Virus record (IMG/VR): IMGVR_UViG_2778261375_000003
Source of the DNA: a virus
Taxonomy: Duplodnaviria > Heunggongvirae > Uroviricota > Caudoviricetes
Reading direction: 5' to 3' (one strand)
DNA length: 64,000 nt
Of the stretch, positions 54,831 to 55,984 are shown piece by piece. Within the stretch, counting starts at the first letter, position 1. Every line of letters starts with the position of its first letter. The notes under the pieces were generated by a model that was not told the DNA's origin, made no database searches, and saw only the letters and a list, made by a program, of their open reading frames with translations. The position numbers were made by a program, and so were the translations under genes.

Positions 54831-55460
54831 ATGAACATACCACCCAGGGCGACTAGGACTGTTTTTTGTGTCGGTAGCGGTCCGTCACTCACTCGTGAGG
54901 ACTGTGCTGCTATAGAAAAAACTGGCTGTTCAATCATCGCGGTTAACAATTCCTGGCAGATGTTCGATGACATTTATGCCTTATACGCCGGTGATTTGTC
55001 ATGGTGGAAGCAATACGGATCCACCATACCGGGAGGGAAATTCCGCAAAGTGACAGCCAACCTGGCGGCGGCGAAATCATTTTCGTTGGAGTACAGGCGA
55101 TATTGTGGACCGGCGGAAGGGGTAAATAGCGGCGCGCAGGCTATCAGTCTGGCTGCTGAATCAGGGGCTGAAGTAGTTGTATTAGTCGGCTATGACTGTT
55201 CTCTGCAAAACGGCCTTCATTGGCATGGCGCGCACCCTCAAGCCCTACGGAATCCAACGCAGGTGTCTATTTCAAAATGGCAACAGCAGTTCCTGGATAC
55301 CCGCAAAAAACACGCAGATTTACATATTTTGAATGCAAGTAGGAGCAGTGCAATTCAATGTTTCCCAAGAATAAATTTAGAGGCAGTGATCGCGTTATTA
55401 TCGTCGGCAGTGGCCCAAGCGCCGCAAACTTTGTTGCGCCGCGCGGAGTGCCGATTATAG
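54831..55460 (+). CDS. Rossmann-like protein (VGSGPS motif), paralogue 1
   Basis: Start taken at ATG 54831; VFCVGSGPS...IIAVNNSW shared with the next gene. Confidence 0.4.
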   Translation: MNIPPRATRTVFCVGSGPSLTREDCAAIEKTGCSIIAVNNSWQMFDDIYALYAGDLSWWKQYGSTIPGGKFRKVTANLAAAKSFSLEYRRYCGPAEGVNSGAQAISLAAESGAEVVVLVGYDCSLQNGLHWHGAHPQALRNPTQVSISKWQQQFLDTRKKHADLHILNASRSSAIQCFPRINLEAVIALLSSAVAQAPQTLLRRAECRL

Positions 55461-55984
55461 CGGTCAATGGGGCCATCGACTGGCTGAACCGCGCTTCTTA
55501 TTTTTTCACACTTGATCCATCGCCAGACAATATGCGGCGCGTTGGTCGTGGCCGCCGTCGCCGTGGTGTTTGTTATTGCATGGCACTACCCGATGTTAAA
55601 GAACGTGAAGTCAGAGACGGCGTTCTGTGCTTCCGTCGTGTGGCTGAACGTGGCATGGAGCCAAAAAATATGAATTCTCCCGAGTGGTGGGCGTGGCGCT
55701 GGTCCGCACATTTCGGACTTTGCGAAGATGAGAATGAAATTGCCAGCGGCAATAGTGCATATGGCGCTCTGAACCTGGCTTTCCATATCGGATTCAAACA
55801 TGTCGCCCTGGTGGGCGTTGACGCTACACAAGAACCACGCGTTCACTCCGGCGGCACGCCAAAAAATCTAAGTCACCTGCCTTTGTTATTCCAGTCTGCG
55901 CGTGAACAGATTGACGTTGTTTCATGCGGGAAAATGGGAGGTATTCCGCAGATGACTCTTAAAGAATGGCTGAAGAATACATGA
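55358..55984 (+). CDS. Rossmann-like protein (VGSGPS motif), paralogue 2
   Basis: VIIVGSGPS...[10 protein letters not shown]; 5' end overlaps paralogue 1 by about 100 nt out of frame. Confidence 0.4.

Follow-up and report, generated by a model that had tools for sequence, protein, structure and literature searches.

Maf enzymes are cytoplasmic protein O-glycosyltransferases that use cytidine monophosphate (CMP)-activated nonulosonic acids. They are ∼600 residues long, with N- and C-terminal domains flanking a central DUF115/MAF_flag10 domain, and their genes lie in flagellar glycosylation islands. Cst-I and Cst-II of Campylobacter jejuni (PDB: 1ro8, 2p2v) are GT42 enzymes. WaaZ (GT73), a KdoIII transferase (Kdo, 3-deoxy-D-manno-oct-2-ulosonic acid), is a 283-residue protein encoded by a single gene of the waa operon and acts on the lipid A-core. 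Archaeal MptE (PDB: 8sd5) is a 6-hydroxymethyl-7,8-dihydropterin pyrophosphokinase (HPPK) that transfers a pyrophosphoryl group from ATP to a pterin. In mycobacteriophages, glycosyltransferases that are dispensable in laboratory growth reportedly decorate capsid and tail proteins (Freeman et al. 2023, cited in PMC12894461); methyltransferases are also implicated in this virion glycosylation (PMC12894461). Here we compare with these systems the overlapping genes pmgO (54798–55460, + strand) and pmgP (55358–55984, + strand) on a 64,000-nucleotide viral stretch (IMG/VR record IMGVR_UViG_2778261375_000003; hereafter the window). We consider it probable that they are two separately translated genes of P1 type, the outcome of an ancient duplication, whose products are enzymes of a glycosylation cassette together with that of pmgQ.

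The gene pair itself has long been recorded. Across positions 54600–56100 the window matches Escherichia phage RCS47 at 100% and phage P1 at 97.5% identity, a resemblance that places it in the P1 family of phage-plasmids. The same pmgO and pmgP coding sequences, with the same 103-nt overlap, are annotated in both records. The pair and its overlap have been part of the P1 reference annotation since 2004, and their presence as annotated genes of a classical phage makes for low novelty. The segment also occurs in ∼587 plasmid records, in nearly all of them at ≥95% identity.

The overlap (55358–55460, + strand) is dual-coding and consists of two halves with opposite constraint. The pmgP frame is −1 (+2) relative to that of pmgO (527 nt from 54831, or 3 × 175 + 2). 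The first ∼46 nt encode the conserved C-terminal motif of PmgO ([14 protein letters not shown]) together with a variable PmgP leader; this motif aligns with the C terminus of PmgP itself and runs ∼46 nt beyond the pmgP ATG at 55358. The last ∼57 nt encode the conserved β1 strand and VGSGPS loop of PmgP together with a non-conserved PmgO tail. The PHROG 4603 profile stops at residue 191 of the 209-residue form of PmgO, and in the AlphaFold2 (AF2) model the tail is a lower-confidence extension of a helix. Between the preceding in-frame stop and the conserved β1/Gly loop of PmgP, ATG 55358 is the only start codon. It lies 12 nt downstream of an AGGAG Shine-Dalgarno-like element (55341–55345, + strand), which is embedded in the conserved N(A/C)SR codons of PmgO and is found at the same place in two diverged P1-like plasmids, from Salmonella (L004) and Pantoea (L089).

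The same arrangement recurs in diverged relatives. In six loci the pmgP ATG falls within the xxA-TGy codons of a (Q/K/T)-Cys pair of PmgO, and the pmgO stop is the only boundary that moves among them. The overlap measures 103 nt in P1, 70 nt in the Salmonella plasmid, 49 nt in the Pantoea plasmid, 40 nt in Chimaeribacter (L090), 94 nt in the lambdoid Citrobacter rodentium prophage phiNP (L003) and 37 nt in the 111-kb coliphage EP_H11; protein identity is 41–58% to phiNP and 47% to EP_H11 (PmgP only). Overlap length varies because the codon choices of PmgP decide where the pmgO stop falls: the Pantoea codons ATC GTA Gcc create a TAG in the pmgO frame, and the P1 codons ATC GTC GGC do not. Overlaps of 4–13 nt (measured as 13 or 4, 11, 7 and 7 nt) are found in most of the more distant relatives, which include Pseudomonas, Zhongshania, Commensalibacter and Brevundimonas, and one Microbulbifer locus may have an overlap of 133 nt, counted from a GTG start. 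The pmgO/pmgP overlap resembles ordinary phage-operon overlaps in its same-strand layout, in the placing of the downstream start and Shine-Dalgarno sequence inside the upstream gene, and in setting the conserved part of each protein against the variable part of the other. At 103 nt, however, it is far longer than the usual 1–4 nt (ATGA-type) overlap, and its length is a drifting by-product of stop position (37–103 nt in enterobacterial relatives).

Both genes are under purifying selection. Across 54701–56000, all 84 of 84 P1-family copies have identical length, no indel and both frames open. Synonymous and nonsynonymous changes in the single-coding parts number 32:7 for pmgO and 35:17 for pmgP. 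Within the overlap, the proximal 50 nt are invariant and all six variable sites lie in the distal half; 6/6 are nonsynonymous for the PmgO tail, and 4/6 are synonymous third positions in pmgP. The last ∼18 residues of PmgO are an unconstrained read-through of the PmgP Gly-loop codons, and are not conserved because pmgO reads on through those codons out of frame. A sequencing or assembly indel, considered as the source of a false overlap, is ruled out by the shared length of these 84 independent copies.

A single pmgP start, a conserved arrangement, 84 indel-free copies with selection on both genes, and the lack of a conserved slippery heptamer together identify the overlap as genuine, not a frameshift fusion and not the tail of a pseudogene. 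The hallmarks of real dual coding, two open frames, two selected genes and an arrangement kept in diverged relatives, are all present. An earlier sequence-only reading of the window had described tandem open reading frames (ORFs) overlapping by about 100 nt out of frame, had left open whether the overlap was genuine, and had proposed a check for indels nearby. The ORFs are there as described, except that the start it gave for the first (54831) is internal to the annotated one at 54798; the overlap proved real, recurring in phiNP and EP_H11, and no indel was found in the 84 copies.

Two other accounts of the overlap were considered, and we find both of them very improbable. Programmed −1 ribosomal frameshifting could yield a PmgO-PmgP fusion besides, or in place of, the separate products: pmgP sits in the −1 frame of pmgO, canonical-pattern heptamers occur in the pmgO frame at 55373–55379 (A_AAT_TTA, + strand) and at 55361 (T_TTC_CCA), and one metagenomic phage contig carries a natural O-P fusion in a single ORF. 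However, X_XXY_YYZ heptamers sought in P1 and five homologous junctions showed none that is conserved; A_AAT_TTA, the rejected candidate site, is confined to P1/RCS47, the junctions of L003 and L090 have no heptamer, and those of L004 and L089 have different ones only. A shift at either heptamer would moreover delete the C-terminal helix of PmgO, which the natural O-P fusion retains, and pmgP comes with an ATG of its own as well as a conserved AGGAG. In many phages O and P are unlinked or reordered. Gene orders in 34 diverse IMG/VR contigs include O-P-Q, O-P-methyltransferase-Q, O-Q-methyltransferase-P, P-methyltransferase-Q-O and P-Q-methyltransferase-O, and on the chromosomes of Pseudescherichia 4 kb separates O from P, which are on opposite strands. 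(These contigs were obtained with a degenerate DNA pattern excluding P1's Asn codon; an earlier protein-alignment scan of viral loci had returned P1 copies only, and a single-protein query one relative.) The orthologues, which the sequence-only reading had proposed to compare for a single fused ORF, are mostly separate genes; the single O-P fusion (P0241, 376 aa, with an in-frame Met at the junction) came from an exhaustive profile search that gave 722 representative homologues, as did P-Q, Q-P and Q-P-methyltransferase fusions, and such fusions speak for functional coupling rather than for frameshifting in P1. The other account, in which pmgO is a decaying gene or an annotation artefact whose ORF and tail are residual and pmgP alone functions, draws on the dispensability of pmgO, the truncated or frameshifted forms of PmgO that are common in public protein sets (P0002, P0003, P0004) and the unconstrained tail past residue ∼190. 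Against it stand the 32:7 ratio and the intact gene in 84/84 copies, a PmgO family, with 19 invariant residues, whose conservation extends from P1 to Pseudomonas, Bacteroidota and jumbo phages, a confident fold prediction, and the listing of pmgO among the differentially expressed genes of a P1vir RNA-seq study. The ratio and the conservation rule out pmgO as a pseudogene. The suggestion of a pseudogene tail was therefore wrong for the gene and right for its last ∼18 codons. pmgO and pmgP are separate genes.

Further multi-domain relatives were seen (P0299, P0248, P0318, P0333, P0327, P0358 and P0374), of the kinds Q-P-methyltransferase (616 aa), P-Q, Q-P, methyltransferase-P and P with a further ∼200-aa domain, and BFVD holds 400–700-aa 'MptE-like' proteins from uncultured phages. 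Shortened PmgO variants form several sets. P0002 (174 aa, 48 members) reflects the loss of one A from the A6 run at 55305–55310 (+ strand), which moves translation into the pmgP frame and to a stop at TAG 55340–55342; P0003 (166 aa) has 173 members and P0004 (161 aa) has 108. These variants may be homopolymer sequencing errors or, in some plasmids, real decay.

Profile comparison shows that PmgO and PmgP are true, distant paralogues from an old duplication. The VGSGPS...IIAVN motif on which the sequence-only reading had based its call of paralogy is present in both (VFCVGSGPSLT...CSIIAVNN in PmgO; [11 protein letters not shown]...VPIIAVNG in PmgP), and a pairwise BLASTP alignment is limited to this N-terminal segment (39% over 36 aa, E=0.003). 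When 83 PmgO-family and 82 PmgP-family homologues are made into profiles, these align by hhalign over 156 columns, nearly full length (probability 97.9%, E=4.2e-13, ∼22% identity), which takes the paralogy well beyond chance. Cross-hits between phrog_4603 ('alpha-2,3-sialyltransferase') and phrog_2111 are consistent with this. The two proteins match PHROG 4603 (PmgO, E=4.5e-74) and the unnamed PHROG 2111 (PmgP, E=2.9e-132). PmgP (208 aa) carries a ∼40-residue insertion relative to PmgO, which is 220 aa long from the annotated start and 209 aa from the internal ATG at 54831.

Structural models suggest that both proteins are distantly related, sugar-transferase-like enzymes of the DUF115/MptE-like fold, which Maf, Cst-I/II and WaaZ share. 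The AF2 models are confident (predicted local distance difference test scores of 92.8 for PmgO and 94.8 for PmgP). The only Pfam match of either protein is PF01973, MptE-like (DUF115), with 23.3 bits (E=5.9e-5) for PmgO and 21.1 bits (E=3e-4) for PmgP; these are the DUF115/MptE-like matches that the sequence-only reading had proposed to look for, albeit subthreshold ones. At E≤1, PF01973 matches 80 of the 83 PmgO-family sequences (best E=3.1e-8) and 82/82 of the PmgP family (best E=8.6e-7), so that by sequence the relation holds at superfamily level. NCBIfam gave no match for PmgO or PmgP. In Foldseek the top PDB match of both models is the flagellin glycosyltransferase Maf of Magnetospirillum (PDB: 5mu5; E=1.5e-4 and 4.6e-4, probability 1.00 for both), followed by Cst-II for PmgO and by archaeal MptE HPPK (8sd5, E=2.6e-3, probability 0.99), SteA and Cst-I for PmgP; against the solved PF01973 members 5mu5 and 8sd5 the query template modelling score (TMq) of the models is 0.41–0.61. 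Invariant histidines are H130 and H132 of PmgO, in an HWHG motif, and H173 of PmgP.

The resemblance to each of these enzymes has limits. What PmgO and PmgP share with Maf is the central DUF115/MAF_flag10 domain, at 12–15% identity: they are bare domains that span only this part of the 632-residue 5mu5 (target score, TMt, 0.20–0.22), and the three-domain Maf architecture is absent. Unlike maf genes, they reside in phage genomes without flagellar context. No flagellin or nonulosonic-acid biosynthesis genes occur in the window or in any related locus, where the neighbours are phage structural or lysis genes, GT8 genes, methyltransferases and adhesins. Cst-I and Cst-II also belong to this fold class (for PmgO and 1ro8, TMq 0.57, TMt 0.50, root mean square deviation (RMSD) 5.0 Å) and have a similar N-terminal Gly-rich nucleotide-binding loop after β1; the RefSeq and PHROG name 'alpha-2,3-sialyltransferase' derives from this fold match. 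Neither profile, however, finds a GT42 match among PDB sequences even at E≤10, and E. coli K-12 and most of the hosts are not known to make CMP-N-acetylneuraminic acid. MptE differs in chemistry, and pmgO and pmgP are linked to glycosyltransferases, with no folate-pathway context.

Among characterized families compared by sequence profile, PmgP appears closest to WaaZ. WaaZ-family proteins also carry PF01973. By hhalign, PmgP aligns with the WaaZ family profile over 186 columns, nearly full length (probability only 83.7%, E=8e-6), and PmgO aligns with it over 82 columns in its C-terminal half only (probability 50%, E=1.6e-4); a single WaaZ sequence against the profiles gave a probability of only 8–17%. 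Matching motifs of PmgP and WaaZ are IIV-SGPS and IIFLSGPT, IAVNGA and IAVNGS, and GNSAyGAL...VGVDaT and CHTVAYTAI...SGLDLT, and an insertion stands at the same place in both. The O-P fusion P0241 has a faint precomputed match to WaaZ_KDO_III; local Pfam scans gave no match to this model (PF27901), which is possibly absent from that copy. In gene context and size WaaZ is unlike PmgP and PmgO.

pmgQ (56655–57356, + strand) accompanies O and P in all cassette loci examined. Its product is predicted to be a GT8/glycogenin-like retaining glycosyltransferase (PHROG 1962, 'glycosyltransferase', E=4.6e-128). As a single sequence PmgQ has no Pfam match at E≤0.1; its profile finds Gat1 (PDB: 6mw5, E=5.7e-7, 156 positions), glycogenin-1 (E=3e-5) and the GT8 enzyme 5gvv (E=8e-4) in the PDB, and D79 and D81 of its DxD motif (LDLDTV) are invariant. 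We take 5gvv to be GlyE, the glycosyltransferase of the pneumococcal PsrP adhesin.

The three genes travel together widely. O, P and Q are found in P1-like, lambdoid, HK97-like, 111-kb and jumbo phages. The named hosts are Gram-negative without exception. The cassette immediately follows the major capsid gene in several unrelated modules of large terminase, portal, protease and major capsid protein genes, and it stands after the lysis genes in lambdoid phages and in an early-looking region of EP_H11; it is also present in jumbo Xanthomonas and Stenotrophomonas phages. Accessory genes encode a further DxD-type glycosyltransferase family (labelled by homology) and proteins that resemble, judged by eye from motifs, GT25 and GT4 enzymes and two kinds of methyltransferase. 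The cassette brings along no genes for sugar-nucleotide synthesis, genes of the folate or pterin pathways were seen at none of the loci, and a literature search found no paper joining phage, DUF115 and glycosyltransferase. Long Ser/Thr-rich extensions were sought at the capsid C termini of cassette phages, and only short S-containing tails were found, which is not informative.

Several of these loci deserve separate mention. In Escherichia phage EP_H11 (OP688485) a pmgP homologue at 7001–7633 (259 bits to the PmgP profile) has no GenBank annotation, apparently because it overlaps the pmgO homologue (6501–7037) by 37 nt; a 322-aa protein, GT4-like by eye, is encoded between P and Q. In the Xanthomonas jumbo phage XacN1 (5324–7946) the gene after an O-P pair encodes a protein of 438 aa that contains a PmgQ-like domain, beside ribonucleotide reductase genes, and the cassette is present in the further jumbo phages Stenotrophomonas CM1 and RAS14 and Xoo-sp13. 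On a Pseudescherichia chromosome, a metagenome-assembled genome (L111, 2236–18532; also L091–L095), a non-prophage island flanked by housekeeping genes holds pmgO-, pmgP- and pmgQ-like genes among those for a 1169-aa inverse autotransporter (IAT_beta with multiple Big_1 domains) and four more Big_1 proteins, which suggests that the cassette and Ig-like surface proteins are connected. In a prophage of a Sphingomonadaceae metagenome-assembled genome (L110, 3362–5224) the portal protein (Phage_portal_3, E=2e-99) has a C-terminal Acb1 domain (PF23474, E=6e-42), an inhibitor of the cyclic oligonucleotide-based anti-phage signalling system (CBASS).

With the pmgP ATG inside the (Q/K/T)-Cys codon pair, the last helix of PmgO is co-encoded with the variable leader of PmgP. 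We propose that PmgO and PmgP would be cytoplasmic enzymes of ∼200 residues. With the GT8-like PmgQ they would make up a portable cassette of three glycosylation enzymes, switched on along with early and late lytic genes, in which each enzyme probably adds one sugar. We infer a glycosylation module from the mobility of the O/P/Q cassette, the additional glycosyltransferases and methyltransferases, the fusions and the position after the capsid gene. The donor of PmgO and PmgP is probably a CMP-activated ulosonic acid. CMP-Kdo, which would be the only such donor common to all hosts, is the most economical guess, because CMP-ulosonic acids are the donors of Maf, Cst and WaaZ, the cassette carries no sugar-nucleotide genes and the named hosts are Gram-negative. 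As acceptor, a virion or other protein would be the first choice, since Maf is the top match, contexts are capsid- or adhesin-adjacent and the GT8 relatives are protein-directed; the lipopolysaccharide (LPS) core would be the second, by analogy with WaaZ and GT8 enzymes and given P1's own LPS-core receptor. To our knowledge, the functional hypothesis put forward here at the level of the cassette may be considered new.

A number of observations weigh against this proposal, in part or in whole. Transferase chemistry, donor (CMP-Kdo included) and acceptor are all predicted. Neither CMP-sialic acid nor CMP-pseudaminic acid is known to be made by E. coli K-12. Both proteins score under the PF01973 gathering threshold (34.6 bits) and so fall short of curated membership, and an hmmsearch of both family profiles against all PDB sequences found no solved structure. 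The fold matches are moderate (TM 0.4–0.6, RMSD 5–11 Å), with pyrophosphokinases (MptE, thiamin pyrophosphokinase) among them. The capsid-adjacent position could simply be a favoured insertion site for morons. As for the translation starts, pmgO may begin at 54798 or 54831, each with a weak Shine-Dalgarno sequence, and N termini vary among homologues; the 12-nt spacing between AGGAG and the pmgP ATG exceeds the optimum. Deletion or CRISPR interference (CRISPRi) knock-down of pmgO, pmgP, ppp and pmgQ causes no plaque or anti-restriction defect, and the P1 proteome text examined makes no mention of virion glycosylation. In the same text PmgC and PmgG are the only pmg-named proteins reported as virion-associated. 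That pmgO and pmgP are non-essential, and their products not among these proteins, fits accessory enzymes.

What the cassette modifies divides the functional readings. A fuller version of our proposal makes pmgO-pmgP-pmgQ the core of an undescribed mobile cassette that would glycosylate virion proteins, such as the major capsid protein, through a CMP-ulosonic acid such as Kdo in Gram-negative phages including P1; in this specific form we judge it unlikely. Modification of the host LPS core or envelope, with PmgP and PmgO as WaaZ-like Kdo transferases and PmgQ as a core glycosyltransferase of WaaO/WaaJ type, is a tentative reading to which we give somewhat more weight while still doubting it. 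It would change or mask P1's LPS-core receptor, for exclusion or to spare progeny adsorption to debris. The nearly full-length alignment of PmgP with WaaZ, the faint WaaZ_KDO_III match of the O-P fusion and the match of PmgQ to GT8 profiles all agree with it, GT8 being a family of LPS outer-core glucosyl and galactosyl transferases; an 'IIIEDDA' motif, judged by eye, is the one sign that an accessory gene may be GT25-like, GT25 being an LPS-type family, and all named hosts bear LPS. Yet the P1 genes stand under C1 operators and a late promoter and are thus lytic-phase rather than prophage-expressed, and several prophages have the cassette inside their late head operon, with capsid genes on one side and connector genes on the other, an odd place and time for surface remodelling. 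Chromosomal copies sit among adhesin genes and not in waa clusters, and the best PDB matches of PmgQ are the protein-directed GT8 enzymes Gat1 and glycogenin (and 5gvv, if its role is as we assume). A different chemistry altogether, in which PmgO and PmgP are ATP-dependent pyrophosphokinases of the MptE/thiamin-pyrophosphokinase kind acting on a pterin or another small molecule, would suit the name of their sole Pfam match ('MptE-like 6-hydroxymethylpterin diphosphokinase') and the fold matches to Methanocaldococcus jannaschii HPPK (8sd5) and thiamin pyrophosphokinase (2omk). We regard it as improbable: Maf and Cst-II head the structural matches, PmgP appears to be a homologue of WaaZ, a Kdo transferase, methyltransferases and a GT8 glycosyltransferase are constant associates and sometimes fusion partners, and the loci lack folate and pterin pathway genes. 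The sequence-only reading had guessed at a nucleotide-sugar- or pterin-handling enzyme; the former guess stands at superfamily level as DUF115/MptE-like, Maf-like nucleotide-sugar handling, and the pterin option has become less likely.

The glycosylation cassette that we favour has likenesses to those of mycobacteriophages: it pairs several transferases with methyltransferases, adjoins the capsid gene and is non-essential. It differs in that its hosts are Gram-negative bacteria rather than Actinobacteria, and glycosylation by O/P/Q is a prediction. We know of no enzyme families common to the two.

In the window the pair belongs to a tightly packed string of five genes in the order pmgN, pmgO, pmgP, ppp, pmgQ, with successive overlaps of 59 (or 26), 103, 19 and 4 nt. 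pmgN (54701–54856, + strand; PHROG 2350, no known function) is a small gene that both the P1 and the RCS47 records annotate. In a different frame it runs over the 5' end of pmgO at 54798–54856, or shares 26 nt with it if pmgO starts at 54831; it is scored essential by CRISPRi, yet its deletion is viable, a discrepancy that may be a polar effect. ppp (55966–56658, + strand; Pfam Metallophos, E=9e-16), for a lambda-type Ser/Thr phosphatase, overlaps pmgP at 55966–55984 and pmgQ at 56655–56658. It stands between pmgP and pmgQ in P1-like phages only, and is absent from the cassettes of non-P1 loci. Upstream of the string, a candidate C1 repressor operator, Oppp (54641–54657, − strand), is recognized by homology to the P1 annotation, from which 1 of 17 bases differs; the P1 record annotates a C1 operator and a promoter 5' of the string. 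The product name 'norphogenetic protein', now carried by PmgO and PmgP homologues in Escherichia, Salmonella, Pantoea, Enterobacter, Citrobacter, Erwinia and Ochrobactrum, probably goes back to a typing error in the 2004 P1 record (pmgM, 'putative norphogenetic function').

The length of the overlap now has an explanation: the pmgP start is fixed inside a conserved Cys codon, the pmgO stop drifts and the PmgO tail is neutral. The overlap is also a warning for annotation, since it has apparently led annotators of at least one deposited phage genome to overlook the downstream gene. Three 'putative morphogenetic' genes of P1, without an assigned role for twenty years, receive a testable proposal of function, as a portable cassette of two Maf/WaaZ-like enzymes and one GT8 enzyme that would be common to many unrelated Gram-negative phages. 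If virion proteins are glycosylated through a CMP-ulosonic acid, this system would be the first in Gram-negative phages to glycosylate virions, Kdo-type transferases would gain a new class of acceptor, and the chromosomal copies would likewise glycosylate Big_1/inverse-autotransporter adhesins. A virion protein as acceptor would matter for phage immunogenicity and for the engineering of P1-based vectors; LPS as acceptor would matter for receptor masking and superinfection exclusion.

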